In this document: positions 4,732 to 59,403 of the stretch, piece after piece
How positions within the stretch are numbered: the first letter of the stretch is position 1
Layout: each line of letters starts with the position of its first letter
IMG/VR virus record: IMGVR_UViG_3300028805_000080
Source: a virus
Lineage: Duplodnaviria > Heunggongvirae > Uroviricota > Caudoviricetes
Direction: 5' to 3' (one strand)
Length of the DNA: 64,000 bases
Notes under the pieces: generated by a model
Database searches by the model: none
What the model saw: the letters and a program-made list of their open reading frames with translations, nothing else
Told to the model about the DNA's origin: nothing
Translations under genes and position numbers: made by a program

Positions 4732-6075
4732 ATGATTGAAAATATTAAAGGATATTCATATAATGACTTGACAATTGTACCTAGTGTGATTTCAAAGATT
4801 TCTTCTCGTTCTCAATGCTGTTGTTGGGAAAGTGAAGATTTTTTACCTATTTGGACAGCTCCAATGGCAAGTGTAGTATCTCCAAAAAATAGAGAAGAAT
4901 TTGAAAATCATGGTATACATGCAATTATTCCAAGAAATATACCTTTGGAAGATAGAATCAAAGAAATGAATGATCATAATTGGGTAGCTTTGTCTTTAAG
5001 AGAGTTTGAAGATTTATTTATTACAAATTATAAAGATAGAACTTCTTATTGGTATGGTATTTGTGTAGATATTGCAAATGGACATATGTTATCTCTTTAT
5101 GAAAAAATTGAAAAAGCTAAACAATTGATAAAAGAGAATAATTCTTATCTTTCTATAATGACTGGTAATATTGCTAATCCAAAAACTTATGAATATATTG
5201 TAAAAAATTTTAATATATATAATCAAAAGACTGGAAAATATGATTGCTTAATTGATTATATTAGAGTTGGTATAGGTGGTGGATCTGGCTGCATAACTAC
5301 TAGTAATGTTTCTATTCATTATCCACAAGCTTCTCTTATAAATGAAACTTATAAAGTTAAAAAGAAACTTAAAAGTGAAACTGAAAGAGAAAATGCTTAT
5401 GAAAGCAGAGGAGTTTGGGGTAATCTTCCAAAAATCATTGCTGATGGTGGTATTCGTAATTATGATCATGTAATTAAAGCATTAGCATTAGGAGCTGATG
5501 GAGTAATGATTGGTAGTATTTTCTCTCAATGTATTGAATCTTCTGGAGATAAAACAACTAAAAATATCAATCAAAAACTTAATCTTAGATTTCATATAGA
5601 AAGATATAGAGATTTCTATAAAGATGATAAAGGAAATTGGTGTGGATATTATACCAATGAATTTATAGAAGAGAATAGTAAAGTTTGGAAGAAATCATTT
5701 AATGATATAAAAACTAAAGTTATTGCTGGTTTATTGTCAAAAGATGATGCAGAATATAAATTAGCTGCTTTACAATATAAAGATAAGATTAATAGTCTTA
5801 AAGAAGCTAAGTTTATTGGTAATATTGATGTAAAATTCTTTGGAATGGCTTCTGCTGATGGGCAAAAATCTATTGATGGAGAAAAGAAAAAGACAGCAGA
5901 AGGAATTACTAAATGGTTACCAGTTAAATATACTATAGAAGGTTGGGTAAAGAATATGGAAAGCTATTTACAATCAGCTATGTCATATTGTGATTGTAAT
6001 AAATTGTCAGATTTTATTGGAAAACCAACTCTTATTGTCAATTCAATTTCGGAGATTCAAGCAGTAAATAAATAA
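4732..6075 (+). CDS. IMP dehydrogenase / GMP reductase family (TIM-barrel) protein.
   Basis: N-terminal 'YNDLTIVPSVIS', then 'PIWTAPMASVVS'. Active-site loop 'GIGGGSGCITT' with the catalytic Cys. 'IADGGIRNYDHVIKALALGADGVMIGS' is present. No CBS pair is evident. Confidence 0.6.
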   Translation: MIENIKGYSYNDLTIVPSVISKISSRSQCCCWESEDFLPIWTAPMASVVSPKNREEFENHGIHAIIPRNIPLEDRIKEMNDHNWVALSLREFEDLFITNYKDRTSYWYGICVDIANGHMLSLYEKIEKAKQLIKENNSYLSIMTGNIANPKTYEYIVKNFNIYNQKTGKYDCLIDYIRVGIGGGSGCITTSNVSIHYPQASLINETYKVKKKLKSETERENAYESRGVWGNLPKIIADGGIRNYDHVIKALALGADGVMIGSIFSQCIESSGDKTTKNINQKLNLRFHIERYRDFYKDDKGNWCGYYTNEFIEENSKVWKKSFNDIKTKVIAGLLSKDDAEYKLAALQYKDKINSLKEAKFIGNIDVKFFGMASADGQKSIDGEKKKTAEGITKWLPVKYTIEGWVKNMESYLQSAMSYCDCNKLSDFIGKPTLIVNSISEIQAVNK

Positions 6076-6077
6076 TT

Positions 6078-6506
6078 ATGGATTTAGAAGTAGTTTTTCC
6101 AAAATATATTGATATGGATGGAAGGTCTATTGTAATACGTAGAGGTAGACCTTATTATAGAGGCGAAGATATTCTTTGTAAATATTATAGGCCTTGTGGA
6201 GAATGGTCATGTATTATAAAATATAGAAAGTACTCTTATTGGTATACATTTGGATTTGATGGACAATTAGATTTTGAGCCTGTAGAGATTAATCTTATAA
6301 CTCCTGAAGAATTTCTTAATGATAATGCATATTGTATAAGTGAAGCAACATCAAGAATGTTCAAAGAAGCTTGGGAAGATATACCAGAAGATATAAGAGA
6401 TCATCAAGATATTTGGGAAGAAATTGATGAAGAAGGAACTTCTCATGGTTGGTGTCATAAAGAATATTATAAAGACTTGAATTATAAATACACAAATATT
6501 TGTTAA
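6078..6506 (+). CDS. Hypothetical protein (142 aa) lying between the IMPDH-like gene and nadE.
   Basis: ORF in the same operon-like run; Cys/His/Trp rich. Confidence 0.35.
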   Translation: MDLEVVFPKYIDMDGRSIVIRRGRPYYRGEDILCKYYRPCGEWSCIIKYRKYSYWYTFGFDGQLDFEPVEINLITPEEFLNDNAYCISEATSRMFKEAWEDIPEDIRDHQDIWEEIDEEGTSHGWCHKEYYKDLNYKYTNIC

Positions 6507-6507
6507 T

Positions 6508-7395
6508 ATGAATTATAAGAAAATTTTTGATACATTAGTTGAACATACAAGAAATTATCTTAATAGTTTTGGATTAAAGACAATGGTATTAGGAATAAGT
6601 GGTGGTATTGACTCAACAATTACTGCTGCTATTTGCTCTGAAGTTGTTAAAAGATATCATGATGATAATTTCAAATTTGTTGGTATAAGTCTTCCATGTA
6701 GTACTAATTCAGAAGAAGAAAATCATGCAGCACGATTGACAATGGATGCATTTTGCCAATATTCTTGGACTTGTAATTTAGAAGAGATATATTTACATAT
6801 GAAAAATGTATGTGAAGAACATATCAATTCTTCTACATTATCATTAGGTAATATAAAAGCTAGGCTTCGTATGATTTATCTTTATAATCTAGCATCAAGA
6901 ATGAATGGGTTAGTTATGGACACTGATAACCTTACTGAGCATTATTTAGGATTTTTTACTATTCATGGTGATGTTGGTGATTATAATCCAATAGGAGGAT
7001 TATGGAAGCATGAAATATATGAATTATGCAAGTTTATCAAAGAACAATATGATAATGATGTAGATCCTAATGGAGAAAACCAGCTTAAAGCTACTGCATT
7101 AGACTATGCTTATAAAATTATGCCTACTGATGGAAATGGAGTATTGCCTGGAGGAGACTTAGCACAAATTGCGCCAGGATATACTTATGAAGATGTTGAT
7201 AAAGTATTAAAATGGTTAGTTGAAGATTTCCATGAAATAAATCCTCCAGTAGAAGCTATCAAAGAATTTTCTAAGTCTACTGGATTTAGTGAAGAAATGA
7301 TTAATGGAATTATAAAAAGACATAGTAATTCTAGTTATAAAAGAGGAAGATTACCAGTTACAATACCACGTTCACATTTGATTTATTTGATATGA
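6508..7395 (+). CDS. nadE: NH3-dependent NAD+ synthetase.
   Basis: PP-loop 'GISGGIDSTITAA' (SGGxDS). Overall NadE-like length and layout. Confidence 0.75.
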   Translation: MNYKKIFDTLVEHTRNYLNSFGLKTMVLGISGGIDSTITAAICSEVVKRYHDDNFKFVGISLPCSTNSEEENHAARLTMDAFCQYSWTCNLEEIYLHMKNVCEEHINSSTLSLGNIKARLRMIYLYNLASRMNGLVMDTDNLTEHYLGFFTIHGDVGDYNPIGGLWKHEIYELCKFIKEQYDNDVDPNGENQLKATALDYAYKIMPTDGNGVLPGGDLAQIAPGYTYEDVDKVLKWLVEDFHEINPPVEAIKEFSKSTGFSEEMINGIIKRHSNSSYKRGRLPVTIPRSHLIYLI

Positions 7396-7988
7396 TAGCA
7401 ATATTTTTAGGAACTTTTAATCCACCACATATAGGACACTTGAATTGTATTCAAAGTGTTCTTGATCATGAAATAAGTAAGCAAATAACAAAAATACATA
7501 TTATTCCTTGCTATCAAAATCCTAATAAAGAAGGAAGTGTAGATTTTGATATCAGATTGAAAATGTGCCAAGAGCTATTCAAAGGATTTTCTGATAAAGT
7601 AGTTGTTGATGCTCTTGATAGAGATCATAAATGGATATTTACTTATGATATGCTTGAGTATTTTATGAGAAATGAAGATAGTTATATAAAAGCAGATTTC
7701 TTATGGATTATTACAAGAGAAACTTATGGAGAATTAAATAATAATAAATGGCATAATTCTGAAGAGATAATATCAAAATATATTACTAAGATGATTATTG
7801 TTGGTCCTAATCTTGAAATGGACATACAACCAGATAATATTTGGTGTAAACAATATGTTCAACTTAGGCCAGGAATAAATGTTCATTCAACAGATATTAG
7901 AAATCTTATTAAAAATAAGAAAACTCCAAATATATATTTGAATAATGATGTAATTAATACTATAAAAGAAAATAAGCTTTATATATAA
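7392..7988 (+). CDS. nadD: Nicotinate/nicotinamide mononucleotide adenylyltransferase (NMNAT/NadD-like).
   Basis: N-terminal (H/T)xGH nucleotidyltransferase motif 'IFLGTFNPPHIGHL'. Its ATG overlaps the nadE TGA (ATGA), which indicates translational coupling. Confidence 0.65.
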   Translation: MIAIFLGTFNPPHIGHLNCIQSVLDHEISKQITKIHIIPCYQNPNKEGSVDFDIRLKMCQELFKGFSDKVVVDALDRDHKWIFTYDMLEYFMRNEDSYIKADFLWIITRETYGELNNNKWHNSEEIISKYITKMIIVGPNLEMDIQPDNIWCKQYVQLRPGINVHSTDIRNLIKNKKTPNIYLNNDVINTIKENKLYI

Positions 7989-8005
7989 TTTAGATAAATT
8001 CTTTA

Positions 8006-8680
8006 ATGAAAACAAAAAAGAAAACATTATTTAATAAAAACCATATATTAATAGAAGAATATAATAATGAGTTTAGAAGTATACCATATGTTTGTCAAAA
8101 AGATGATATGATTGATAATAAATATGCTATATCTTCTAGACTTTATTATCCTTATGATGAAAATAGAAAATATAATGTAAAGACTATTGCAGAAATAAAA
8201 GAGTCTCCATTAGGGTTTTATTATAATCAAACAAAAACTGTCAAAGAATTAAAAGATAAATATCAAGAGAAAATTTTTGATAGACATCCTATATTATATA
8301 GAAATATTTATATATTTGGTCCTAAATATCATTATATAATCAAATATCCATATTTATATAATAATGTCAATATTGGAAAAGAGACTAGGCCTTATGATAT
8401 TGCAGACACTAATGGAATAGAAGATCATTTTATAGTTGACTTAAAGAATGTATTAGATACTATTTTTGAAATTTGCAAAAATGATAATATTTCATTAAAA
8501 GAAACAAATTATAAATATAGTAATCAAAAGTATGAGAAATTTCATATTGGAGAACTTAAAAAAGATGTATATATAGATATTTTTGGATTTGCTAATGGAC
8601 CATTATCACAATCAAATAATGATAAGATATTAAGTCATGGATTTGATTTGAAAGATAGCTTTAGAAAAAGAAAAGAATAA
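8006..8680 (+). CDS. Hypothetical protein (224 aa) downstream of nadD.
   Basis: ORF only. Confidence 0.35.
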   Translation: MKTKKKTLFNKNHILIEEYNNEFRSIPYVCQKDDMIDNKYAISSRLYYPYDENRKYNVKTIAEIKESPLGFYYNQTKTVKELKDKYQEKIFDRHPILYRNIYIFGPKYHYIIKYPYLYNNVNIGKETRPYDIADTNGIEDHFIVDLKNVLDTIFEICKNDNISLKETNYKYSNQKYEKFHIGELKKDVYIDIFGFANGPLSQSNNDKILSHGFDLKDSFRKRKE

Positions 8681-8910: not shown

Positions 8911-9627
8911 ATGTATATTGCTGGTTATTATAAAGATCTATGGTTTTGGTATAAGAAAGAAAATAAGCCATTTTGTATAATGTTTGCAAAGTGGACTGAT
9001 GAATTATTGTCTTGGTCTATTACATTCTTTGATACTATTGAAGAAGTAAAAGAAGAGACAAAATTACTTGAAGAATTATATCAAAATGTTTCTAGGCCTT
9101 ATAAAGAAGTTATACCAGAAGAGTCATCATATTTTAATAAGAAATATAGAATAGTATTTGATAAAGATAATCAATATTATTGGGGATATATAGTAATTGA
9201 TTTCAATAATGAGAAAATTCAATATTTTAGAGATGGAGTATATATACCAACTACTACATTAAAAAAGAAATATTGGTTTCTTAATCAATGTTATCATTTT
9301 AGTAAAAAAGAAGATCAATTATTAATAAAAGATAAATTATTAAGAACTGAAAAGGATTCTAATATTAATGATTATAAATTTAATGCCGGAGAATATGATG
9401 GATGGCTTCAATTTCGTTGGGGAGATAGAAAAAACGCAATAGGAGTTTATAAACCTGAAGAAGAGAAAAGCAATAATAAACATAATAACTATAAGCCTAA
9501 AGATAAATATTTTAAAAAATATGAAGAAGACATTGAATTGACTGAAGAAGAAAAGATTCAAGAAGAAATGGATAAAGATCTTGATAAAGAAAATTCGAAG
9601 TATTTAATGAATAAGTATGGTTGGTAA
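8911..9627 (+). CDS. Hypothetical protein.
   Basis: ORF only. Confidence 0.35.
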   Translation: MYIAGYYKDLWFWYKKENKPFCIMFAKWTDELLSWSITFFDTIEEVKEETKLLEELYQNVSRPYKEVIPEESSYFNKKYRIVFDKDNQYYWGYIVIDFNNEKIQYFRDGVYIPTTTLKKKYWFLNQCYHFSKKEDQLLIKDKLLRTEKDSNINDYKFNAGEYDGWLQFRWGDRKNAIGVYKPEEEKSNNKHNNYKPKDKYFKKYEEDIELTEEEKIQEEMDKDLDKENSKYLMNKYGW

Positions 9628-19517: not shown

Positions 19518-19687
19518 AAAGTTATTTAGTTTTAAGATATATTAGTTTTATATTTATTATTGGATCTATAATTATATATTCAATTATAAATAATCATGAA
19601 ATAAGATTTGGTTGTATTATGTTTACTATATTAGGAATATATGCACTAATCAATTCAAAAATAAATAAACATAGATTTTATAAATGA
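19514..19687 (+). CDS. Small 57-aa membrane protein 'MKSYLVLRYISFIFIIGSIIIYS...', missed by the ORF-length cutoff.
   Basis: ATGA overlap with the upstream stop and ATGA overlap with the downstream start. Length is in frame. Two hydrophobic segments. Confidence 0.45.
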   Translation: MKSYLVLRYISFIFIIGSIIIYSIINNHEIRFGCIMFTILGIYALINSKINKHRFYK

Positions 19688-20013
19688 ATAAAAAGAAAAT
19701 TTATATTAGTTTACCTATTGCATTTCAAGAAGATACTGTATATCAACGTAATAATGATGCAAAATCTTATTTGAAGACCAATTTTAGAAAATATGAATGG
19801 ATTTCACCTATAGATAATAATCATATTGACGATGAAGCATTAGGTAATCACTTAGCAATTGAGAGAACTGCTTACTACATGGGAAAAGATATTGAGCAAG
19901 TAATTCTTTGTGATGCAATATTGATGTGTCCTGGTTGGGAAAACTCTAAAGGTTGTAAAGTTGAGAAATTCACCGCTGAGACTTATGGAAAAGAAGTATT
20001 ATATATGAAATGA
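19684..20013 (+). CDS. DUF4406-like / nucleoside 2-deoxyribosyltransferase-like protein (paralog 1).
   Basis: 'KIYISLP...CDAILMCPGWENSKGCKVE...GKEV' pattern. Confidence 0.5.
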   Translation: MNKKKIYISLPIAFQEDTVYQRNNDAKSYLKTNFRKYEWISPIDNNHIDDEALGNHLAIERTAYYMGKDIEQVILCDAILMCPGWENSKGCKVEKFTAETYGKEVLYMK

Positions 20014-20348
20014 TTATGAAGAAGAAAATTTATTTAAGTCTTCCAATGACAGTGATGCCAAATGATATAAAAGAGAGATATATAGAACTATCTAAATATG
20101 TAAGTAAGCTTCCAAAATATAAAGATTATATTCAAGTTGGTCCAATAAACATTTGGTCGTATTTGAATATTCCAGATTATAAAGAAGTAAGTTTAAGATA
20201 TTCAAATTGTATAGGGCAAGATATTGAGAATCTTATTGAATGTGATGCAATCATAATGGGTCGTCATTGGGAAAAAGGACCTGGATGTAGATTAGAGCAT
20301 GAAGCTGCAAAGATTTACAACAAAGAAATAATCTATCAATTATATTAA
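20010..20348 (+). CDS. DUF4406-like / nucleoside 2-deoxyribosyltransferase-like protein (paralog 2).
   Basis: 'KIYLSLP...CDAIIMGRHWEKGPGCRLE...NKEI'. Clearly homologous to the upstream gene. ATGA overlap. Confidence 0.5.
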   Translation: MIMKKKIYLSLPMTVMPNDIKERYIELSKYVSKLPKYKDYIQVGPINIWSYLNIPDYKEVSLRYSNCIGQDIENLIECDAIIMGRHWEKGPGCRLEHEAAKIYNKEIIYQLY

Positions 20349-37501: not shown

Positions 37502-38092
37502 ATGGAGAATTTTCCTGTAGATTATATTGATAAAGAGACTGGTGAAAAGAAAGTAGCTTGGATTAGTCGTAGTGTAGCTGTTTCTGGTATTGTATTTTGT
37601 AAAGACCTAGATGGTGATTGGTGTATATTAGCTAATAAGCGTGGTAAAGGTACTCCAGATTTCCAAGGTTATTGGAATTGTATTTGTGGATATCTTGACT
37701 ATGATGAGAATGCTAATCAAGCAATGAATCGTGAGATATTTGAAGAGACAGGACTAGATATTCCTGGAAGAAGATTCATTCATTATTTTGTAAACTCTAA
37801 TCCTAAAGAGAATAGACAAAATGTAACTATTAGATTCTATTGTATACTTAAGTCAGATATTACAGAATGGAGTAATTTCTCAAAAGACAAGATGGAGAAA
37901 GATGAAGTAGCTGATATCAAATGGATTAAAGTAAAAGATATTAATGATTATCAATGGGCATTTAATCATAATGACTTGATTAATTATACATATAATACAT
38001 TTGTAAATATAAGTTGGTGGAAGAGAATTATTATTAATTGGTATAATACTCATATCATTAAGCAATTAGTTGAAAGTTTATATAAGAAATAA
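37502..38092 (+). CDS. Nudix hydrolase.
   Basis: Perfect Nudix box 'GYLDYDENANQAMNREIFEETGL' (Gx5Ex7REUxEExGU). Confidence 0.65.
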   Translation: MENFPVDYIDKETGEKKVAWISRSVAVSGIVFCKDLDGDWCILANKRGKGTPDFQGYWNCICGYLDYDENANQAMNREIFEETGLDIPGRRFIHYFVNSNPKENRQNVTIRFYCILKSDITEWSNFSKDKMEKDEVADIKWIKVKDINDYQWAFNHNDLINYTYNTFVNISWWKRIIINWYNTHIIKQLVESLYKK

Positions 38093-38628
38093 TGGATAAA
38101 GACAAATATTTACAATCTATAAAAGATGATAAGATCTATAAAGTAATGGATAATTATCTTCTTCAAATGTCACCATGGGAACATGGTGACAATCGTCGTT
38201 TATATGAATTTGAAGATGATGACTTTATGATTGTTACTTATCAAAATGCTTGTATGATTGTAAATAAACAATTTCTTGAATCTGATGAAGAATGGGAGCA
38301 TAATGGAAAACAATATATTGCACGTTCTTTAAAAAATAAGACAATAGAAGAACATACTGCAATGTTGAATATGCTTCCTTCTCATTATGTGAAAGATTCT
38401 ACAAAAGTAATGTTGACTACTCCTAATATTGATAACATATCTATTCAAGATATGCAAGGAAATACTTTCAAAATGGTAAAACATAAAGGAAAGATTTATT
38501 ATATGCTTATTATAAATTCTTTCTTACCAAAAGTAAATCTTTATGATACATTTGGAAAGTTTTGTCAAATAGTCAATATTAAGAATGTCAAGCCAATATT
38601 TAATGTAACTGATAGAAAATATATATAA
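38092..38628 (+). CDS. Hypothetical protein.
   Basis: ORF only. Confidence 0.3.
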   Translation: MDKDKYLQSIKDDKIYKVMDNYLLQMSPWEHGDNRRLYEFEDDDFMIVTYQNACMIVNKQFLESDEEWEHNGKQYIARSLKNKTIEEHTAMLNMLPSHYVKDSTKVMLTTPNIDNISIQDMQGNTFKMVKHKGKIYYMLIINSFLPKVNLYDTFGKFCQIVNIKNVKPIFNVTDRKYI

Positions 38629-41765: not shown

Positions 41766-42335
41766 ATGCGAGATATATTTATTAGAAGTATTTTAGCTGG
41801 TATCTCTATTGGTTTAGGAGGAGCTATATTTCTTAAGCTTGGAGGAATTATTGGAGCAATTATGTTTGCTTTTGGATTATTGATAGTAGTTCACTTTAAA
41901 TTACCATTATATACAGGAACAGCAGGATTCATTGAAGTCAATAAGTTTCAAGAATGGCTTAATATGTTTATAATATTAATTGGAAACATTATTGGATGCT
42001 TCTTGTTATCATTATTGAATATAAAAGGAATTGATGGATCTCAAATAATCCAATCAAGAATAGATGGAGGATTATTGAATGGATTATTAATGGGTATTGG
42101 GTGTGGATTGATAATGACATTAATAGTTAAAGGAGGAAGAGATAAGAATCTTCTATTGATATTATTTGGAATTCCTTTATTTATTCTATTAGGATTCTAT
42201 CATTCAATTGCTGATGCTTTCTATTTTGCAGTTTCTAATATGAATTTAGAATATTTACCAATCTATTTTATAATTGTGTTAGGTAATTTTATTGGTTGTA
42301 ATATTCCTAGGATTTTAAAATATAATAAAGAATAA
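41766..42335 (+). CDS. Compact formate/nitrite transporter (FNT)-family channel-like membrane protein.
   Basis: Six hydrophobic helices. 'GFYHSIADA' resembles the FNT 'GFEHSIANM' signature. 'EWLNMFIILIGNIIG' and 'VLGNFIGCNI' resemble FocA segments. Confidence 0.45.
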   Translation: MRDIFIRSILAGISIGLGGAIFLKLGGIIGAIMFAFGLLIVVHFKLPLYTGTAGFIEVNKFQEWLNMFIILIGNIIGCFLLSLLNIKGIDGSQIIQSRIDGGLLNGLLMGIGCGLIMTLIVKGGRDKNLLLILFGIPLFILLGFYHSIADAFYFAVSNMNLEYLPIYFIIVLGNFIGCNIPRILKYNKE

Positions 42336-43533: not shown

Positions 43534-45462
43534 ATGAGCAACAAAAAGATTATTGGTATCGATCTTGGTACTACAAATTCATGTGTAGCCGTATTTGAAG
43601 GTGGCGAATCACAAGTTATTGTAAATTCAGAAGGTAAACGTACTACTCCTTCAGTAGTTGGTTTTACTAAAGATGGAGAACGTAAAGTTGGTGATGCAGC
43701 AAAGCGTCAAGCAATTACAAATCCGAATAATACTGTTTATTCTATAAAGCGTTATATGGGTATTACTTATGATAAGGTTAAAGATACAGATAAGAAGGTG
43801 CCTTATCATCTTATTAATGAAAACAACCTTCCTAAAGTGGATATTGATGGAAAGAAATATACTCCACAAGAAATTTCTTCTATGATTCTTACTAAAATGA
43901 AAAAGACGGCAGAGGACTATCTTGGAAATGAAGTTACTGAAGCAGTTATTACTGTTCCAGCCTACTTTGATGACCAACAACGACAAGCAACAATTGAAGC
44001 TGGTAAAATTGCTGGTCTTGATGTAAAGCGTATTGTAAATGAGCCAACTGCTGCAGCACTTGCTTATGGTATTGATAAGTCAGATAAGGATATGAAGATT
44101 GTAGTATTTGATTTTGGTGGCGGTACTCATGATGTATCTATTCTAGATTTTGGAAGTGGAGTATTTGAAGTATTAGCTACTGGTGGAGACACTCATCTTG
44201 GTGGTGATGATATTGATAATATTCTTATTAATTATATGGTTGATGAGTTCAAGAAAGATAAAGGTGTTGACTTGACAAAAGATCCAATGGCAATGCAACG
44301 ACTTAAAGAAGCTGCAGAAAAAGCAAAGATTGAACTTTCTTCATCAACAACAACAGAGATTAATCTTCCTTATATTACAGCTAATGAGAATGGACCTCAA
44401 CATCTAGTAATGAATATTACTCGTGCTAAGTTTGAACAATTGATAGATCCTATTATCAAGCGTACTATTGAGCCATGTCGTACAACTCTTGAGCAAGCAA
44501 AGCTTTCTACATCAGATATTGATGAAGTTATTCTTGTTGGTGGTTCTACTCGTATTCCGGCAGTTCAAGAAGCTGTAAAGAATTTCTTTGGTAAAGAACC
44601 TTCTAAAGGTGTTAATCCTGATGAAGTAGTTGCTATTGGTGCATCTATTCAAGGAGCTATTCTTAATAAAGAAGAAGGAGTAGGTGATATTGTTCTTTTG
44701 GATGTAACTCCTATTTCTATGGGTATTGAAGCACATAATCAATTTGATCCTGAAGGACGTATGGCAAAGCTTATTGAGGCTCAAACAACTATTCCTTGTC
44801 GTAAGTCACAAACATTTACTACAGCAGTAGATAATCAAACAGCAGTAACTATTGTAGTTCTTCAAGGTGAGCGTACTTATGCAAAAGATTGTAAGACTAT
44901 TGGTACATTTAATCTTGAAGGCATTGCACCAGCTAAAGCAGGTATTCCTCAAATCGAAGTAACATTTGATATTGATGCTAATGGTGTATTGAAAGTTTCA
45001 GCAAAGGATCAAGCAACTGGTAAGGAGCAAAAGATTACAATTCAAAACAATAATCTTTCTGATGATGAAATTGAAAGAATGAAAGCTGATGCAGAAGTTC
45101 ATAAAGAGGAAGACAAGAAACGAGAAGAATTGATGAATAAGTTGAATATGAGTCAAATGTTTATTAATTCTATTGATCAAGCATTGAATGATGATAATCT
45201 AAAAGATAAGATTACAGATGAAGATCGTAATAATATAACTTCTGCAAAGGATAATCTTGACACACTTCTTAAGGAATATCAAAAAGCAGAAAATAAAGAA
45301 GATGCTATGTCAAAGATTGAGGAAGCACAAAAAGCTCTTGAAGAAGCATGGAATCCAGTAGCTCAAAAGATTTATGCTCAAGCACAAGCTTCTAATCCTC
45401 AAGGAGCACAAGCATCTAATCCATTTGGAGATATATTCAATGGAGCAGGTAATACTCAATAA
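43534..45462 (+). CDS. dnaK: Hsp70 chaperone DnaK.
   Basis: '[14 protein letters not shown]', '[10 protein letters not shown]' and '[11 protein letters not shown]' are present. Full-length with a C-terminal lid. Confidence 0.9.
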
Positions 45463-45546
45463 TAAATATATAATTTAAACTCTCAATAGGATTCTCTTGT
45501 AGAGTCCTTATAATAAAAAAATTCAATATAATTGGAGGTAATTATT

Positions 45547-45990
45547 ATGAAAAATGCTTTAAGTTTTTGGAAACCAATGAATTTATTTGGTTTTAATGAT
45601 GATTGGTTTGATGATTTTAAAGATCCATTCTTTGGAATTTCTAAGACTTTTACCAATTCCCCTAAAGTAAACATTAAGGAAACTGATAAAGCGTATGAAA
45701 TAGAAATTGCCAATCCTGGATTTACAAAAGATGAGACAAAGATTAAGATTGAAGATGGAGTACTTTATGTATCAATGATTTCTGAGTCTAAAGATGAGAA
45801 AGAAGATGATCAAAAGTATCATGTACATCAATGGTCAAAATCTACTTATCATGAATCTTGGAAACTTCCTGAAAATGTAATTGAAGATCAAATTGTTGCA
45901 AAGAACAATGATGGAGTTCTTGTTATTACATTACCTAAGAAGGAAGAAGAGATTAAGAAAGTTGAATCAAGGACAATTGAAATTGAATAA
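45547..45990 (+). CDS. Hsp20/alpha-crystallin small heat-shock protein. Start is probably this ATG, not the track's upstream non-ATG start.
   Basis: 'VNIKETDKAYEIEIANPGFTKDETKIKIEDGVLYV...LPKKEEE' ACD pattern. GGAGG Shine-Dalgarno sequence 8-9 nt upstream of the ATG. Confidence 0.7.
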   Translation: MKNALSFWKPMNLFGFNDDWFDDFKDPFFGISKTFTNSPKVNIKETDKAYEIEIANPGFTKDETKIKIEDGVLYVSMISESKDEKEDDQKYHVHQWSKSTYHESWKLPENVIEDQIVAKNNDGVLVITLPKKEEEIKKVESRTIEIE

Positions 45991-46049
45991 TTTTATTAAG
46001 AGTTTAATTGGGATGGGACATGTCCCATCCCATTTTTAATTTTTAATAT

Positions 46050-47093
46050 ATGGCAAAAGATTATTATAAGATATTAGGTATAGATAAGAATGCTACTGAA
46101 GATGAGATAAAGAAAGCTTATCGTAAAGCTGCAGTAAAATGGCATCCAGATAGATGGACAGATAAGTCAGAGAAAGAAAGAAAAGAAGCAGAAGATAAGT
46201 TCAAAGAAATCACAGAAGCAAATAATGTATTGAGTGATCCTGATAAGAGAGCTAAATATGACAAGTTTGGTGATAATTGGGAGCAAGCTCATGGATTTGA
46301 TTTTGACTTTGGTGGCTTTGATGATATAATGGGTGATTTCTTTGGAAGAAGACGTAAACCTAAAGGACCTTATCCAGGTCAAACAATTACAATGAACTAT
46401 TATATTGATATTCATGATATATTCAATGGTGTCAATAAAGATATTGAGATTGATGTAGATGTAAGATGTCCAAGTTGTAATGGTACTGGTGGTGAAAGTG
46501 AGATTTGTAGTCATTGTCATGGTACTGGTATGATTTCAAGAACTAACAAGACTCCATTTGGTATTATTTCTCAAGAGTCACCTTGCCCATATTGTCATGG
46601 ATTAGGAAGAATAATCAAGAAGACTTGCTCAGATTGTCATGGAGCAGGAATGAAAAAGAAGACTAGAAAAATCAAGTTGAATATCAAACCATTTACCCAA
46701 AATGGATATCCAATGAAATTTACTGGTATGGGATATGAGTCAAAAGATCCTAAAGGACTTAATGGAGATTTGATTATTCAAGTAATTTATAATATTGATT
46801 CAAAGAAATATGTAATTCAAGGAAATACTGTATATGAGAAAATAACTATTCCATATTATGATTGTATATTAGGAACAACTATGAAAGTAAAGTTGCCTAA
46901 TAACAAAGAAAAAGAGATTACTATTAAACCACTTTCTAATAATGGTGATAATGTTGTATTATATAATGAAGGAATAAATGGAGGACAATATATATTTGTT
47001 ATTGAACCAGAATTACCAAAGAGAACATTAAGTAACAAGCTTTCTAATGAAGAGAAAGAACTATTAGAAAAGATTAAGAAATTACATAAATAA
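46050..47093 (+). CDS. dnaJ: Hsp40 co-chaperone DnaJ.
   Basis: J-domain 'DYYKILGIDKNATEDEIKKAYRKAAVKWHPDR'. Four CxxCxGxG zinc-finger repeats. G/F region. Confidence 0.85.
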   Translation: MAKDYYKILGIDKNATEDEIKKAYRKAAVKWHPDRWTDKSEKERKEAEDKFKEITEANNVLSDPDKRAKYDKFGDNWEQAHGFDFDFGGFDDIMGDFFGRRRKPKGPYPGQTITMNYYIDIHDIFNGVNKDIEIDVDVRCPSCNGTGGESEICSHCHGTGMISRTNKTPFGIISQESPCPYCHGLGRIIKKTCSDCHGAGMKKKTRKIKLNIKPFTQNGYPMKFTGMGYESKDPKGLNGDLIIQVIYNIDSKKYVIQGNTVYEKITIPYYDCILGTTMKVKLPNNKEKEITIKPLSNNGDNVVLYNEGINGGQYIFVIEPELPKRTLSNKLSNEEKELLEKIKKLHK

Positions 47094-48359: not shown

Positions 48360-50753
48360 TTAATCTGTAATATGTCCATCAACTATTGTTAAAGGATTAA
48401 ATGAAACATAGATTTCATCTGAACTTGTATGAGCAACATTATATCTACCAACTTTTACATAATTGTAAATATTATTTTGTGGAGTATTGATTACTAATAG
48501 AAGTTTTGTTCCTTTATAAAGTAATATATCACCAGGTAATAGATTCTTTGTCAATGAAGTGGTTTCATCATTATCTGTAAATATCTTGCTTGGTAAATTA
48601 ATTTCATAAGCAAATTTCTCTTTATTTTTAGTCAAAGTTATTCTATCAACCGATTCAAAATAATCTAAAAGATATTGTCCGCCAATATTATCATTTATAT
48701 TGAATTCAAATTCGGCTAAGTCTCCTTGATTATCATTTACTGGCATTACATATTCAATAGAAGTTCCATCAACATTAAGTTTCTCTTTATAATACATATA
48801 ATATTTCTTAATAAATGCAAGAGGATCTAATGTATATTGGAATTTAATTGGTTTAGAATTTGAAGTATATTTACCAGTTTCCATAATTTCATCACCAAAA
48901 GCATTACGTAACTTTAGATATTCTTTTCTTGTCAAATCATGAGAATCTTGTCCTACAATAGATATATTACCACTAAATTCATTCAATCCAATATATTTTA
49001 ATTTCAATACATCATTTACTTTATAGTTTATAAAATTGATACCAACAAGATTTGTATTATTGACAATACCATCTTTTAATATTGATATTTCTTTTCCTTC
49101 AACTTGTGTATTATCGAGAATATCTACCCAAGTCTTAATGAATGATTGAATATTCAAACCAGCACCACTTACATTATTCAAAGTTACATTTATCAAATTA
49201 GATGTTGGAGTATAATTGAACTCATCGATTTGAATATTCTTTAATGATAATGTATTCAATGTTTCTGGTAATGATATATATTCAAATTCAAGATTTTGTT
49301 TAGGAATAAATGATTTGATATTACTTCCAATAGCATTGAATATCTTAAGATTAGATAATTTATTCAATGTAAAATCTTTCTTCAAATTAGAACAATTTAC
49401 AATATCAATTTCTTTAAGAGACTTTAGATTACTAATACCATAAATTTCTTCTATAGGACTTTCATAATCCATTGAGCCAATACGTAAATATTCAAGATTA
49501 GAAACATTATTATTTTCAATTATCCAGTTAGTATTTGTAGTCTCATATACATTAATCTTCTTATCATATTTATTGATAAGATTAATCTTCTTTATATTAT
49601 TAGAAATACTTGTAAAATCTAATCCTTTAATATTTTCTGGATTTACAATATCAAATGTTTGTATTTCTTCAAGATCTTCTAAATTACTAATATTGAATTC
49701 TGTCAAATCATCACATAGTTTATCTTGTCCACAAACTTTATTAGTATTTATATTTACATTGAAATAATTTTCATTCAATGGATCAACTTTTACTAATAAG
49801 TCATTTTCTTGTAAATTAGTAGTATCAATATCAAAAGTAATTCTATTATTGAACCAATTATTATATTTACTATTGAAATTGAAATAAGCATAAAGATTCT
49901 TATTATTCAAAGAATAAGTATTCAAGTTAAGGGTCAATACATTATCTAATTCAGATATAAAATAAGTCTTCAAATCTCCATATTCTTCAACAACTCTGCT
50001 AGTATTGTTTTCAAAGAATAATTCCATACGGTTATCAAATCTATTAATATCTGATATAGAATATGTATAATATGTATTGAATCCTGTATAAGTTTGATCT
50101 GTAGGAACATAAGCAATTGTACCATCAGCTAATGTAATTTGACGCATGATGTAACCAGTATAAGCAACATCATAAGCAATTTCCATATAGTTATAGTCTA
50201 CAAATTGATTACTAAAGTCATATGTTTTTGTCTCAAATCCTTCTGTAACTGTATAGATAGTATTTTCTCCTCTATAAGGATATTTCTTATGTGCATATGA
50301 TATTTCTTTAAGCTCTACATTATTCTTATAGTAATTAAGCTTATTGAATCTCATATCATTAACATTCAATAACAATTCAATTAATTTTTGAGATGGAATC
50401 ATATATGTATTATCAAAATCACTATTCAAGTCATCTTCATAATTATAATTGAAAGTAAGAATATTCTTATCAATTTTAATATCAACTTGATTATTCTTGA
50501 ACTTACCCATATATGATATAGTTGCATTGATAATATCACCAATATTATTATATTTAGTAGGATTTTCACCAAATATATTAGAAGGCATATTTGACCAATA
50601 ACTATTATTATCTCGTGTTAATGATAATTCTCCAAAATATGATGTTTCAGTGCCATATAGTCTATTCTCTACAGCATAAGCAGCTTCTTCAGCTTCTCTA
50701 CCAGAATAGAATGTGATATTTGGCAATACTGATACTGTTATTGTTTTATTCAT
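48360..50753 (-). CDS. Tail fibre / receptor-binding-like protein with leucine-rich-repeat-like segments.
   Basis: 'NLEYLRIGS...ISNLKSLKEIDIVNCSNLK...LSNLKIFNA' LRR-like periodicity. Asn/Tyr-rich. Adjacent to the fibre genes. Confidence 0.4.
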   Translation of the reverse strand: MNKTITVSVLPNITFYSGREAEEAAYAVENRLYGTETSYFGELSLTRDNNSYWSNMPSNIFGENPTKYNNIGDIINATISYMGKFKNNQVDIKIDKNILTFNYNYEDDLNSDFDNTYMIPSQKLIELLLNVNDMRFNKLNYYKNNVELKEISYAHKKYPYRGENTIYTVTEGFETKTYDFSNQFVDYNYMEIAYDVAYTGYIMRQITLADGTIAYVPTDQTYTGFNTYYTYSISDINRFDNRMELFFENNTSRVVEEYGDLKTYFISELDNVLTLNLNTYSLNNKNLYAYFNFNSKYNNWFNNRITFDIDTTNLQENDLLVKVDPLNENYFNVNINTNKVCGQDKLCDDLTEFNISNLEDLEEIQTFDIVNPENIKGLDFTSISNNIKKINLINKYDKKINVYETTNTNWIIENNNVSNLEYLRIGSMDYESPIEEIYGISNLKSLKEIDIVNCSNLKKDFTLNKLSNLKIFNAIGSNIKSFIPKQNLEFEYISLPETLNTLSLKNIQIDEFNYTPTSNLINVTLNNVSGAGLNIQSFIKTWVDILDNTQVEGKEISILKDGIVNNTNLVGINFINYKVNDVLKLKYIGLNEFSGNISIVGQDSHDLTRKEYLKLRNAFGDEIMETGKYTSNSKPIKFQYTLDPLAFIKKYYMYYKEKLNVDGTSIEYVMPVNDNQGDLAEFEFNINDNIGGQYLLDYFESVDRITLTKNKEKFAYEINLPSKIFTDNDETTSLTKNLLPGDILLYKGTKLLLVINTPQNNIYNYVKVGRYNVAHTSSDEIYVSFNPLTIVDGHITD

Positions 50754-50762
50754 ATATTATCA

Positions 50763-53450
50763 TTAATTAATTATATTTATTGTACATTTTTGACTTAAGT
50801 TAGTTCCATCAATAGTCTTTACAAATATTTCAGTTTCACCTTCTGATATACTTAAGATATTACCTAAATTATCAATAGTTGCTATTTCTGGATTTGTTGA
50901 TTCAAATGTAATATTTTGATTTGTTGTATTATCAGGAACTACTGTGGCAATTAATGAATAAGTCTCATTTACATTCAATGTCAATTGGGTATCTGATAAT
51001 AACAATTCTCTAGTAGGTATAGAAACATTTGCATTTATACTTGTAATGATACCACTATTATCATCGGCCATAGCATAAATCTTAGCTTTACCTTCACCTA
51101 TAGCTGTTACACGACCATTCATAACTTTGATTATATCTTCATCAGATGTGTACCAAATAAGTGTCTTGTTATATGCATCAGCAGGAGTAATTACATAAGG
51201 TATATTGTATTCATTACCAATATAAAGATCAATGTCATTTCCTTCATTCATCTCTATTGCTGTAATCAATGTTACAGAGCTTACATGACATCTAGCAAAA
51301 ACTCCACTTCCATCAGCAGCTTCAGCAGTTATTACAGCATCTCCTCCAGCAATTGATCTAACAAATCCAGTTTGGTCTACAGAAACTTTATCTGGATCAC
51401 TTGATGTCCAAATGATTGTCTTGTCATCAGCATCATCATTTACTGTAGCTTCTAATTGATAAGTATCTCCTAAGTCAAGTGATACTACAGATTCATTCAA
51501 TTCTAAGCTTCTTACAGGAGTATAGCTAATTATTGTAACGTAAGTATGAACATCTGATCCATCCTTTGGTGAAACAACAATTTCAGTATTTGTCTTAGAA
51601 CTAATATATATTCTACCATCTATACCATTAGTTTCATTACCAATAGATACTGAACTATTTGGAGTAACCACTGACCAATTAAGAGTCTTATTAGATGCAT
51701 TTTCTGGTCCTACTTCAGCTTCAATCTTAGTAGAATGTCCTACTAATATATTCAATGAATCTTTAACTTCAAACTCTTCAACATTAGGATCAGCTATTAT
51801 ATTGATAAGAGTATCATCAATAGTAAGCTTAGAATTTCCTTGTTGAGCTAAAGTAATAGTCTTAGTTCTATTGTTTAATGTAAGATTACTTGAAATCTTG
51901 ATTATAGAATCATCTTTCATAATTTCTTCTCCAAGTAATTCATTTATTGTTTCTTTATTCAATTGAGATCCAATATTACCAATAATTACTTTATTAGTAT
52001 TCTTTACATAAATAGTTTCAACAGCTGTATCAACTGTTACATCAATACGACTAATAATATCACTACCATCGGTAGACTCAGCATAAATTGTTACACGACC
52101 TTCAGAGTTCAATGTAATCTTACCAGTCTCATCAACAGTGGCAATTTCATCATCGCTAGAATACCAATTGATTGTTGGGTTTGTAGCATCTTCAGGAACA
52201 ACTGTAGCATGTATTTGTTGCTCATATCCCTTGAATGCTTTAATAGTTGTTGTATCAAATAATATATCAATTACTGGAATTACAACATTAATATTTATTG
52301 TGGCAAATATACTTGAATTTTCTTCTGAGTAAATCTTGATGCTTGTTTCTCCACGCTTACCTAATGCCATAATTCTACCATCTTCAAATACCTTAACCAT
52401 CTCTTCATCATATTCAATACATATTGGTGAATTAAGATAATCAGTAGGTAATATATCAATACTCTTTGTAATGATTGAATTGATAGGTAATGTGATATTT
52501 GGATTAACAACTGTAATACTAGTAATTGGTTTATGAAGTATGACAATTTCTTCTTCTTTAGGATCTTTATCTACTACTCCATCATCACCTAATTCTTCAT
52601 CACTATATATCAATGTAGCTTTGACATCTTCTGATTTAGTAACAAACTCTAAATCCATCCAAACCGGTATACTAACCTTCTCATATACCCACTCAGAAAC
52701 ACCTTCACCTGTATCTTCATTAGTAATAGTTGTCTTAAGCCATCTAGTATAGTATTCTCTATCTGGATTTCCAAGATAATAATCATTCCAAATATCAAAT
52801 GAAGAATTAGCTTCAACATAGTCATTCAATGTCTCATCGAAATAATAATATCTTTCATCAGCTTCATCTTCATAAGTCCAATATTTGATATAAGTCTTAT
52901 GATTTACATTGTCATTATGGATAATAAAAGTATTTTGATTATTATTTCTTGTTCTAAACTCTAAATCAATAAATACTTGCTCATTGAATCTAAGTTGATA
53001 TTCTTCATCAGTCATTATTACTTCAGATATTGACTTCAAGAAATCTTCTAATACTTTACCACGATAAGCAGACCAAACTTTAGTGCTATCATTTGTAACA
53101 TCATCATTAACAATAACAAGAACATCTTGAGCACGATTCAATACTTCTTGTTGATTGAAAGATTGACCTTTATCACCTTGAGGACCTTTGTTACCATCTT
53201 CTCCAGTTTCTCCTTGGGTACCATTATAAACATAAAGATATTGACTTTCATTAGTATCATAATCAATACGAATAGAATTCAAATGATCATTACCATCACC
53301 TAATTGATTGATACCAACGATTTTTCTACCTTTAATAGATGATAAATCAATTTTATAGTTACTTTTACCAGATGCAACAATAGTCTTACCACCAGTTATG
53401 AGTTTATATAGAATAGGTAAATCTGATAGTTTATTTACTTTTGTTATCAT
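50763..53450 (-). CDS. Tail fibre protein with a collagen-like Gly-X-Y segment and multiple Big_2 (bacterial Ig-like) domains.
   Basis: 'GETGEDGNKGPQGDKGQS'. At least four Big_2-like repeats, e.g. 'YQLEATVNDDADDKTIIWTSSDPDKVSVDQTGFV...'. Confidence 0.55.
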   Translation of the reverse strand: MITKVNKLSDLPILYKLITGGKTIVASGKSNYKIDLSSIKGRKIVGINQLGDGNDHLNSIRIDYDTNESQYLYVYNGTQGETGEDGNKGPQGDKGQSFNQQEVLNRAQDVLVIVNDDVTNDSTKVWSAYRGKVLEDFLKSISEVIMTDEEYQLRFNEQVFIDLEFRTRNNNQNTFIIHNDNVNHKTYIKYWTYEDEADERYYYFDETLNDYVEANSSFDIWNDYYLGNPDREYYTRWLKTTITNEDTGEGVSEWVYEKVSIPVWMDLEFVTKSEDVKATLIYSDEELGDDGVVDKDPKEEEIVILHKPITSITVVNPNITLPINSIITKSIDILPTDYLNSPICIEYDEEMVKVFEDGRIMALGKRGETSIKIYSEENSSIFATININVVIPVIDILFDTTTIKAFKGYEQQIHATVVPEDATNPTINWYSSDDEIATVDETGKITLNSEGRVTIYAESTDGSDIISRIDVTVDTAVETIYVKNTNKVIIGNIGSQLNKETINELLGEEIMKDDSIIKISSNLTLNNRTKTITLAQQGNSKLTIDDTLINIIADPNVEEFEVKDSLNILVGHSTKIEAEVGPENASNKTLNWSVVTPNSSVSIGNETNGIDGRIYISSKTNTEIVVSPKDGSDVHTYVTIISYTPVRSLELNESVVSLDLGDTYQLEATVNDDADDKTIIWTSSDPDKVSVDQTGFVRSIAGGDAVITAEAADGSGVFARCHVSSVTLITAIEMNEGNDIDLYIGNEYNIPYVITPADAYNKTLIWYTSDEDIIKVMNGRVTAIGEGKAKIYAMADDNSGIITSINANVSIPTRELLLSDTQLTLNVNETYSLIATVVPDNTTNQNITFESTNPEIATIDNLGNILSISEGETEIFVKTIDGTNLSQKCTINIIN

Positions 53451-55304: not shown

Positions 55305-55722
55305 AATAATGAAAGACTTGCAGAATGGAGATTTTGTATATATATTAAATGTAAATAAAGATCCAATGATTATACTAGATTGTATTATTCAAAATGTATT
55401 TACAAATGGACCAGGAATTTCTTCAATATATTCAAATAAGTTTAAAATCATATTACCTGATGGAAGTATTAGATATTTTTACTCAAATGTTCCGAATATT
55501 AGTTTTGGAAAATTTGAAATATATGATATAGAATATCCTGATTTAGATTATGATAAAGGAGATGAATATTTTATTTGTACTAATAGAGATTACTTGATTG
55601 ATGAATATATAAGTAATTCTAAGAAAGCAATTGATTATTGGGAAACTATTATAAAAAACTATACTGAATTACTAGAAACTGAAAAGAAAAGAATATTATA
55701 TATTGAACAACAAAGAATATGA
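55273..55722 (+). CDS. Hypothetical protein.
   Basis: ORF only. Confidence 0.3.
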   Translation: MKNFLEKQKYKIMKDLQNGDFVYILNVNKDPMIILDCIIQNVFTNGPGISSIYSNKFKIILPDGSIRYFYSNVPNISFGKFEIYDIEYPDLDYDKGDEYFICTNRDYLIDEYISNSKKAIDYWETIIKNYTELLETEKKRILYIEQQRI

Positions 55723-56309
55723 TAAAATGGAAAACCGGAGATATATTCAATACTTCTTGTAAGACAATTGTCAATACAGTAAATTGTGAAGGAGTAATGG
55801 GTAAAGGACTAGCATTAGAGTGTAAGAAACGTTATCCATTTATGTTTAAAGTATATCAATATGCTTGTGCTTATGGAAAGAATGGAACACCAGATCATCC
55901 TATATTAAAAGAAGGTGGAGATTTATATTTCTATTGGAATCCTAAAGCTAATAAAGATGAAGCTTGGTTACCATTTGATAATGAATTAGAGAAAATACTT
56001 CCTAATATTTATGAAGTATATGATAAGCACCATATATTGAATTTTGCCACAAAAGTATTTTGGAGAAATCCATCAAAATTAGAATGGATAGAAAGAGGAC
56101 TTTATAATTTTTGTATAAAAGATTATGAATATGGAGATATAAAACATAAATATTATAATTTAGGTCCAGATACTTATAATAAAGCATTGACTTCTATTGC
56201 ATGGCCAAAATTAGGATGTTCAAATGGAGGACTAAGATGGGAAGATGTAAAACAATTAATGATTAAATATTTAGATCCATTACCATTTGTTTGTGAAATT
56301 TATGAATAA
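55719..56309 (+). CDS. Macro domain (ADP-ribose binding/hydrolase) protein.
   Basis: 'GDIFNTSCKTIVNTVNCEGVMGKGLALE' resembles the macro 'GDIT..DAIVNAAN..L..GGGV..AI' pattern. 'IAWPKLGCSNGG' resembles 'iAfPaistG'. Confidence 0.5.
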   Translation: MIKWKTGDIFNTSCKTIVNTVNCEGVMGKGLALECKKRYPFMFKVYQYACAYGKNGTPDHPILKEGGDLYFYWNPKANKDEAWLPFDNELEKILPNIYEVYDKHHILNFATKVFWRNPSKLEWIERGLYNFCIKDYEYGDIKHKYYNLGPDTYNKALTSIAWPKLGCSNGGLRWEDVKQLMIKYLDPLPFVCEIYE

Positions 56310-58768: not shown

Positions 58769-59403
58769 TGCAATATAGAAGTAAATATTTAGAAATCAAT
58801 ATAAAGAAAAAGCAACATTTAGCTTTTGAGTTTATGCCTTATGGATTTGGATATGATAATCCATTATTAATAATTAAATTATTCATTATATCATTTTACA
58901 TTACATTACCATTTAAGATTAAAGAAAAAGATAGTGATATTAGTTATGGATTTATATTCTATGATTTAGATCATCCGCATTGGTGGCCAGATTGCCTACG
59001 AATTTCATTTGGAAATTATAGTAAGTCTTATGATATGCCTTGGCTATTAGTATTATTTGATACCCAATATGAATCTAATTTTGTTAAAGGAAATATTCAT
59101 TTAAAAGATACTAATAAAAATGATAATATATTTAAACAATCAGCAAGAATATTATTAAATAATGGAAATTCATTAGGGCTTAAATATTATAAAGAAACAA
59201 GAATCTTAAAAATGAAACCATTTGGGCATTATATAGAATTTAGGAAAAAAATTTTAAATGTATTAAATATAGAATATAATGAGCCAAATTATGATATAAG
59301 TGATAAAGGAAGAACTTTTGATATGATATTTTTTAATAAGAATGAAACTACACAAGAAGCTTTTGAAAGATATTGTAAAAAATATAATTTAAAATTAATA
59401 TAA
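58768..59403 (+). CDS. Hypothetical protein.
   Basis: ORF only. Confidence 0.3.
   Translation: MQYRSKYLEINIKKKQHLAFEFMPYGFGYDNPLLIIKLFIISFYITLPFKIKEKDSDISYGFIFYDLDHPHWWPDCLRISFGNYSKSYDMPWLLVLFDTQYESNFVKGNIHLKDTNKNDNIFKQSARILLNNGNSLGLKYYKETRILKMKPFGHYIEFRKKILNVLNIEYNEPNYDISDKGRTFDMIFFNKNETTQEAFERYCKKYNLKLI

Follow-up and report, generated by a model that had tools for sequence, protein, structure and literature searches.

A coupled NadE-NadD gene pair and a displaced Nudix gene in a probable giant rumen phage: a likely cassette for the last steps of NAD+ synthesis

The DNA analysed here is a stretch of 64,000 nt (the window) from the virus record IMGVR_UViG_3300028805_000080, and its subject is a pair of overlapping genes for the synthesis of nicotinamide adenine dinucleotide (NAD+), encoding NadE and a NadD-family adenylyltransferase, together with a Nudix hydrolase gene that sits about 30 kb away. 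The window was located on a 321,221-bp ENA metagenome contig (ERZ27256871:k141_3950003), on which a T4 gp13-like gene lies immediately upstream of it. Related sequences were found in IMG/VR viral contigs and in huge gut phages, Lak megaphages among them. A phage origin is supported at the sequence level, and the source is probably a giant rumen phage with Prevotella as host. The GC content of the window is 26%, and the standard genetic code fits it, with 87% coverage by long open reading frames (ORFs), on which ground an alternative code of the kind used by Lak phages was rejected.

A preliminary description of this DNA proposed that five + strand ORFs between 4732 and 8680 form one module for NAD+ synthesis. 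All five are present, with coordinates exactly as claimed, and the ATGA overlap that it described between nadE and the adenylyltransferase gene was confirmed by reading the sequence. For NadE, the adenylyltransferase and the IMPDH-like protein, the family matches are much stronger than chance would give. The features that carry our conclusions are as follows.

6508..7395, + strand: NadE, an NH3-type single-domain NAD+ synthetase of 295 aa (PF02540, TIGR00552, motifs)
7392..7395, + strand: ATGA overlap, in which the NadE stop TGA (7393-7395) overlaps the NadD start ATG (7392-7394); read directly
7392..7988, + strand: NadD-family nicotinate/nicotinamide mononucleotide adenylyltransferase of 198 aa (TIGR00482, Pfam CTP_transf_like, motifs)
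37502..38092, + strand: Nudix hydrolase, displaced third member of the module (Pfam NUDIX 1.7e-12; Nudix box GYLDYDENANQAMNREIFEETGL)
38092..38628, + strand: ORF of 178 aa after the Nudix gene, candidate associate of the module (67% identity to an ORF after NadD)

NadE matches Pfam PF02540 (NAD_synthase) at 7e-43 (146.9 bits, cut-off 21; profile positions 3-239 of 242) and TIGR00552 at 128.6 bits, above the cut-off of 63.65. PF02540 is the only domain detected in its 295 aa, with no nitrilase-like glutaminase domain, and its top PDB matches are NH3-dependent NAD synthetases (3p52, 4.6e-22). The PP-loop SGGIDS noticed earlier is present as S31-G-G-I-D35-S36. The motifs SGGxDS, GNIxARxRM, TDNxTE, GFxTIHGD, PTDG and KR..P are invariant across the phage and Prevotella sequences, and the window protein carries GNIKARLRM, TDNLTE144, GFFTIHGD and PTDG just as Prevotella NadE does. 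The loss of catalytic residues, about which the preliminary description was concerned, was checked in both proteins of the pair, and their catalytic motifs are intact. ATP-dependent amidation of nicotinate adenine dinucleotide is the predicted activity of NadE.

Since the protein shares 55–58% identity with the chromosomal NadE of Prevotella across 98% of its length (e.g. P0118, from a 3.3-Mb Prevotella genome), the gene is, judging by its sequence, host-derived and captured from a Prevotella-type host. On the P0118 contig, nadE stands in a housekeeping context (parA/parB, relA/spoT, alaS) with a NadB-like flavoprotein gene nearby. The window protein would be a full-length orthologue of this housekeeping enzyme with all its motifs, and its chemistry is presumably identical. 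The phage gene is fully ameliorated to the composition of the phage (GC 0.30, GC3 0.14), and the capture would therefore be old. A scan of IMG/VR with NadE as a single protein gave no matches.

The adenylyltransferase aligns with TIGR00482 over all its positions (1-194 of 194; 2.9e-23, 82.9 bits) and with Pfam CTP_transf_like at 4.5e-11. Its best PDB match is Staphylococcus aureus NadD (2h29, 2.7e-8), end to end, while NadR models match it only marginally. The HxGH motif on which it had been named a nicotinamide mononucleotide (NMN) adenylyltransferase is present in GTFNPPHIGH (residues 7-16), and a C-terminal motif HSTDIR lies at residues 165-170; three phage sequences all keep GxFxPPHIGH and S166..R170 unchanged. 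Cellular NadD matches in 185,579 species genomes come from many phyla, with 0 Prevotella among the 80 matches listed. An alignment-based scan found relatives of the phage NadD on 60 IMG/VR contigs of 14.5–435 kb, at 27–57% identity. On these comparisons NadD is assigned to a phage-specific lineage, and the pair can be described as a NadE of host origin coupled to a NadD from a phage lineage. Unlike NadD-NadE of bacteria, the pair is virus-encoded and ameliorated to 30% GC, and its NadD is not host-like, with 30% identity or less to the cellular NadD proteins found.

In order to find which genes accompany this NadD lineage, the window genes and the genes of a complete cluster were searched by tblastn against the 60 NadD-bearing viral loci, within 8 kb on either side of NadD. 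The number of loci with each gene is given below.

Nudix: 58/60
NadE: 55/60
PncB: 46/60
PncA-like isochorismatase: 44/60
AAA ATPase: 19/60, inserted between NadE and NadD
IMPDH-like gene of the window: 2/60
142-aa ORF of the window: 0/60
224-aa ORF of the window: 0/60
238-aa ORF: 0/60

The pattern persists over the whole range of NadD identity, from 27% to 57%. Because NadD co-occurs with PncA, PncB and NadE, the lineage is argued to serve the deamidated route, and it may prefer nicotinate mononucleotide (NaMN) to NMN.

The Nudix hydrolase that the preliminary description reported at 37502 was confirmed, and its Nudix box is intact. Its identity to the Nudix protein encoded immediately downstream of NadD in phage MT835470 is 47% (3e-55), and when used alone as query it matches 58 of the 60 NadD-bearing loci; comparative genomics therefore supports the suggestion that this distant gene is related to the NAD pair. 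Weak matches to NrtR-type and NadM-Nudix-type proteins were also recorded. The 178-aa ORF behind it has no family match in our scans, and it shares 67% identity with the ORF that comes directly after NadD in two relatives (L098 and L099), which possibly associates it with the NAD module. Since both genes match NadD-adjacent genes of relatives, the module appears to be split in the window phage, with NadE-NadD at 6.5–8.0 kb and the Nudix gene (and perhaps the 178-aa ORF) at 37.5–38.6 kb. By analogy, the Nudix protein most likely hydrolyses ADP-ribose (ADPR) or a related NAD-derived dinucleotide.

Complete modules were seen in relatives by Pfam matches. For example, MT835470 (L014), a 117-kb human-gut phage, contains genes for a PncA-like isochorismatase, PncB, NadE, an AAA ATPase, NadD and Nudix at 22.9–28.4 kb, and a 356-kb phage (L100; IMG/VR 3300028887_000066) contains isochorismatase-like, NadE, PncB, Nudix and NadD genes. 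In L098 (435 kb), the closest NadD relative, PncB and NadE lie a few kb upstream of NadD, and a radical-SAM gene follows NadE. The module is also present in non-jumbo gut phages of 87–190 kb, and the phage PncB genes that were verified encode 387–407 aa.

None of NAPRTase/Nampt, isochorismatase, quinolinate phosphoribosyltransferase (QRPTase), PnuC or NadR was found in precomputed Pfam calls from -3,492 to +73,559 relative to the window, a span of 77 kb or 24% of the 321-kb source contig. PncA and PncB were likewise not found near the cassette in three relatives with the same backbone (L010, L101 and L103). From these comparisons the window cassette looks like a cut-down and split version of the module of PncA-like protein, PncB, NadE, NadD and Nudix that several large gut phage lineages carry.

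Backbone genes (helicase, o92, o242, o210 and Band_7) are 82–89% identical between the window phage and its sister phage L010, while across the segment 3593-9627 (L010 3115-9646) protein identity is only 45% for NadE, 49% for the 224-aa ORF, 54% for the 142-aa ORF, 60% for the IMPDH-like protein and 67% for NadD. The order of these five genes (IMPDH-like, 142-aa ORF, NadE, NadD, 224-aa ORF) is kept in L010, and the NadE of each phage is nearer to Prevotella NadE (about 56–57%) than to the NadE of the other phage. These values would fit a mosaic segment that divergent phages have exchanged, or else faster evolution of the segment.

Taken together, we consider it probable that the real unit is the two-gene cassette of NadE and NadD, coupled by the ATGA overlap, with the displaced Nudix gene, and that it raises terminal NAD+ synthesis. 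NadD would convert NaMN and ATP into nicotinate adenine dinucleotide (NaAD) and pyrophosphate (PPi), and NadE would convert NaAD, ATP and NH3 into NAD+, AMP and PPi, so that flux through the last two steps would rise in the infected Prevotella cell, with the Nudix enzyme acting on ADP-ribose or a related NAD-derived dinucleotide. Because no PncA or PncB is visible in the inspected span, NaMN would be supplied by the host, either de novo or by host PncB, or by a gene in the remaining three-quarters of the phage genome. The phage, which is very large, might gain a general supply of NAD+, a buffer against defences that deplete it, or both.

Several points weigh against this reading. The 82.9 bits of the adenylyltransferase lie below the TIGR00482 equivalog cut-off of 112.45, for which reason we file it as NadD-family and not as an equivalog, and its closest cellular relatives are just 22–33% identical. 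The 60 viral loci are redundant (about 5–6 lineages, many near-identical), and their counts overstate independence. PncB may also be present outside the inspected 24% of the contig, since one 376-kb relative carries it at a distance of about 16 kb from NadD. Moreover, a phage enzyme that depends on NAD+ (LigA, for example) and would account for a demand was not found in the window.

The cassette and the Nudix gene may instead be a dedicated counter-defence against Thoeris, DSR and SIR2-like NADases, in the sense of the NAD+ reconstitution pathways (NARPs), with host PncA and PncB, or phage copies elsewhere, returning nicotinamide as NaMN. The full module of the relatives would handle both NADase products, nicotinamide through the PncA-like enzyme and ADP-ribose through Nudix, which could recycle it, and the hyperdivergence of the NAD segment relative to the backbone is expected of arms-race loci. 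Other candidate anti-defence genes also occur in the window, one for a DarG-like macro domain (2e-37) and one with a weak match to Acb3, NARP1 to NARP3 prove the principle, and Li et al. (PMC11662467) proposed such a role for phages of this kind. However, the PncA and PncB steps were not found in the inspected 77 kb, and NadD with NadE alone cannot rebuild NAD+ from nicotinamide and ADP-ribose. Both steps already exist in the host, NadE is common as an ordinary auxiliary metabolic gene in cyanophages, pelagiphages and jumbo phages, and no experiment on the deamidated route turned up in literature searches. A purely defensive role is thus possible but doubtful.

Another order of the same two reactions is known from Francisella, where NadE acts as an NMN synthetase (NaMN to NMN) and the adenylyltransferase as an NMN adenylyltransferase (NMN to NAD+). 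The same two superfamilies would lead from NaMN to NAD+ with identical net chemistry, and genomic context cannot separate the two orders. The NadE gene precedes the adenylyltransferase gene, F. tularensis 3fiu is among the PDB matches of NadE (1.6e-15), and the adenylyltransferase is divergent and under the NadD equivalog cut-off. We nevertheless regard this order as unlikely: the window NadE is a full-length orthologue (55–58%) of the Prevotella housekeeping enzyme and its nearer PDB matches are classical NAD synthetases, the adenylyltransferase best matches NadD-type (NaMN-preferring) and not NadM or NadR proteins, and the reversed order is without evidence in the window phage.

The cassette of two genes, in place of the five-gene module first proposed, is preferred after inspection of the three remaining ORFs between 4732 and 8680.

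4732..6075, + strand: GMP-reductase-like member of the IMPDH/GMPR family, 447 aa with an insertion of about 80 aa (Pfam IMPDH 1.4e-29); judged not to belong to the module
6078..6506, + strand: ORF of 142 aa, clade-restricted (8 homologues, conserved Cys/His); judged not to belong to the module
8006..8680, + strand: ORF of 224 aa, a widespread stand-alone phage protein family; judged not to belong to the module

These ORFs are packed tightly. The stop TAA of the IMPDH-like gene (6073-6075) is followed after 2 nt by the ATG at 6078, the stop TAA of the 142-aa ORF (6504-6506) is followed after 1 nt by the NadE ATG at 6508, both read from the sequence, and a 17-nt spacer separates the NadD-family gene from the ATG at 8006. 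A scan for terminators found none, and one for promoters gave 70 promoter-like sites where 68.4 were expected. Tight gene packing is the norm across the whole genome, and tight packing beside NAD genes does not imply a common function.

For the IMPDH/GMP-reductase-family enzyme, the family given in the preliminary description held, while its membership in the module did not, as it travels without NadE and NadD. Cys187 (in the loop GIGGGSGC), Thr189 and Glu269 are invariant. No Arg-Tyr dyad was found in the flap between GM(A/S) and EG, which is short as in GuaC, and there is no match to the CBS domain. The score against TIGR01302 is 74.7 bits (cut-off 481.5), short of what defines an IMP dehydrogenase, and the best model, PRK05458, reaches 82 bits against a cut-off of 344, with the insertion of about 80 aa being lineage-specific. 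Because the three residues are kept while the dyad and the CBS match are lacking, the protein is, on its sequence, GMP-reductase-like rather than IMPDH-like. Full-length homologues (38–41% identity) occur in all 15 of 15 Lak megaphages, and Lak records number 0 among the 4 NadD matches and 0 among the 40 NadE matches listed, although 15 such records would have made up the largest group by organism among the NadE matches. The gene lies 160 kb from NadE in the 462-kb phage LR756500, and in the crAss-like phage cr108_1, which lacks NadE and NadD, it follows thymidylate synthase in a deoxynucleotide (dNTP) cluster with ribonucleotide reductase (RNR), dUTPase and thioredoxin. A role in purine-nucleotide metabolism would fit, one possibility being G-to-A rebalancing in a genome with 26% GC, in which the HGPRT-like ORF at 63561 might also take part.

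The other two ORFs were rightly described as unknown: neither has a Pfam or NCBIfam family or a PHROG of known function. The 142-aa ORF, with 0 matches in Pfam, NCBIfam and PHROGs, has only 8 homologues, all within the clade and at least 54% identical, in which C34, C40, C45, C86, H109 and H127 are invariant; an AlphaFold (AF2) model built from 8 sequences was unusable (pLDDT 39). In L101, which has the same backbone, unrelated small ORFs fill its slot. As a candidate type-II phosphoribosyltransferase (PRTase) it was rejected for its size, about 1/3 of such an enzyme, and for the lack of a NAPRTase or QRPTase match to hidden Markov models (HMMs).

The 224-aa ORF belongs to a family of stand-alone proteins of 190–260 aa (35 close clusters, 238 representatives), and a profile search of 1.84 billion representatives returned only proteins of like size that stand alone, none of them fused to a known domain. 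Apart from one weak PHROG match to its C-terminal peptide only (phrog_4243, unknown function, 1.7e-3), it has no match in Pfam or NCBIfam. Members at 33–34% identity in other huge phages have no NAD gene within 8 kb, and the next gene after a family member is usually a homologue of the window ORF at 8911-9627. It was rejected as a PncA nicotinamidase (no isochorismatase HMM or fold match, and no invariant Cys in the family) and as a type-II PRTase (no HMM match, no fold match of its model, and 224 aa against 387–407). The most conserved part of the family, which also has members in L007, L009 and L010, is the C-terminal peptide KILSHGFDLKxSFRK. It is disordered in the structure model and looks like a docking motif, and it is not reused in other window ORFs or in the loci checked.

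The suggestion that these two ORFs supply the missing NaMN- or NMN-forming step was not borne out: they are absent from 60 of the 60 NadD loci, ordinary PncA and PncB perform the step in relatives, and HMM searches of both ORFs and a fold search of the 224-aa protein gave no nicotinamidase, PncB or Nampt match. GMP reductase releases ammonia. A single five-gene NAD+ operon, in which the unknown ORFs supply NaMN or NMN or GMP reductase gives NadE its NH3, is therefore most improbable despite the one-strand spacing without a predicted terminator and the gene order retained in L010, and we judge the three ORFs to be neighbours in a mosaic, fast-diverging segment and not members of the pathway.

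Several other genes of the window were characterized. The ORF claimed as a type-I PRTase at 63561 has the following position.

63561-64000 and beyond (full ORF at 11385-12005 of L013): ORF of 206 aa with the phosphoribosyl pyrophosphate (PRPP) motif IHIMLIDDTVDSGTT (weak HGPRT/APRT-type matches, 1.7e-3)

Its PRPP-binding-type motif is present, while for the family there is only a weak HGPRT match (1.7e-3), far below the cut-off; it is purine-PRTase-like, and does not have the type-II fold of nicotinate PRTase (NaPRT) or Nampt. It comes after a split type IIA topoisomerase (59488-61380 and 62177-63559), and the 460-aa ORF at 62177, tried as a Nampt candidate, was rejected as a GyrA/ParC-like topoisomerase subunit. 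Together with the GMP-reductase-like gene, the 63561 ORF suggests phage purine salvage and interconversion. Two tandem DUF4406 ORFs (19684-20348, +; 109 and 112 aa), the first of which matches the nucleoside 2-deoxyribosyltransferase-like phrog_355 (9e-17), possibly act in nucleotide salvage or base exchange.

The macro domain reported at 55719 was confirmed and is DarG-like: the protein at 55719-56309 (+) matches NCBIfam antitoxin_DarG at 2e-37 (macro part only) and phrog_335 at 1.3e-23, and it could be a DNA ADP-ribosyl glycohydrolase that counters DarT-type defence. The ORF at 58768-59403 (+) has a weak match to the CBASS inhibitor Acb3 (PF25187, 2.1e-5, 24.9 bits; cut-off 27) and lies directly 3' of a sigma-70 region-2-like ORF (57518-58768). 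A 189-aa membrane protein of the formate/nitrite-transporter (FNT) family is encoded at 41766-42335 (+; Pfam Form_Nir_trans; NCBIfam FocA 1.3e-6) and is shorter than cellular FNTs. A chaperone set stands in a row at 43534-47093 (+), comprising HSP70/DnaK-like (642 aa), HSP20 (147–152 aa) and DnaJ (347 aa) proteins. Very large ORFs of 797 aa (with a faint LRR_EndoS match) and 895 aa (Big_2/Ig-like repeats) occupy 48360-53450 (-), and their products are probably surface or adhesion-type virion proteins.

Comparison with known systems places the NadE-NadD cassette among phage NAD+ genes already described. NARP1 (Adps and Namat) and NARP2 (Nampt and Nmnat) have been shown experimentally (10.1101/2024.02.11.579819), and NARP3 consists of PnuC and a NadR-like enzyme (PMC13464706). 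The preliminary description held that the route through NadD and NadE (NaMN to NaAD to NAD+) differs from NARP1 and NARP2; this is correct, and the route is distinct from NARP3 as well. With NARP1 and NARP3 it would share the restoration of the NAD+ pool by phage genes. However, the Pfam calls of the 77 kb show no PRPP-synthetase-like Adps and no Nampt-like Namat, the substrates of NARP1 being ADPR and nicotinamide, and no PnuC and no NadR kinase/adenylyltransferase, the substrate of NARP3 being nicotinamide riboside. As in NARP2 and in NadV-NatV of Vibrio phage KVP40, the phage would use a two-step route ending in an adenylyltransferase. NARP2 is amidated (nicotinamide to NMN to NAD+) and needs no NadE, whereas the inspected span has no Nampt and the adenylyltransferase is NadD-type and not NadM/NadR. 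KVP40 NatV is reportedly a Nudix domain fused to an NMN adenylyltransferase, and a Nudix protein is likewise tied to the adenylyltransferase here, the two being adjacent in 58 of the 60 relatives.

The nearest precedent is a set of 174 ‘NAD-jumbo phages’ from animal guts, including Bacteroidota-infecting ‘Kuafu’ phages with pncB-nadD-nadE (Kuafu_71, Kuafu_19), for which two roles were already proposed, the supply of NAD+ and possibly resistance to its depletion (Li et al., Microbiome 2024, PMC11662467). Like them, the window phage is an animal-gut jumbo phage (321-kb contig; >200 kb) with a presumed Bacteroidota (Prevotella) host, and its nadD and nadE are clustered. Unlike them, it shows no pncB in the inspected span of 77 kb and may therefore not qualify under a definition that asks for the complete pathway, and its NadE and NadD genes directly overlap. 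The window locus is thus apparently an incomplete case of an already published phage NAD+ gene set. PMC11662467 is silent on the association of NadD with Nudix and on the module in 87–190-kb phages, both found here. Beyond that study, our analysis adds the near-universal Nudix partner, the 87–190-kb phages, the separate origins of the host-derived NadE and the phage-lineage NadD, and the negative result for the neighbouring genes.

NAD+ depletion is a major anti-phage strategy, and the three phage reconstitution pathways shown experimentally do not include one via deamidated NadD/NadE. The association of NadD, Nudix, PncB, PncA and NadE gives a complete five-gene candidate (MT835470 and IMG/VR 3300028887_000066), and with all five genes NAD+ would be rebuilt from nicotinamide. 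We tentatively suggest, as a speculation, that the five-gene set around this NadD lineage may be a fourth pathway of NAD+ reconstitution, a deamidated one, in Bacteroidota phages, which would rebuild NAD+ from both NADase products, nicotinamide via PncA/PncB and ADP-ribose via Nudix to ribose-5-phosphate for PRPP. In that case the window phage would be a trimmed form dependent on PncA/PncB of the host, and the place of its cassette in a hyperdivergent segment would reflect an arms race with NAD+-depleting Prevotella defences. If the deamidated route works as a counter-defence, the concept of phage NAD+ reconstitution would extend to abundant Bacteroidota phages of the gut and rumen.

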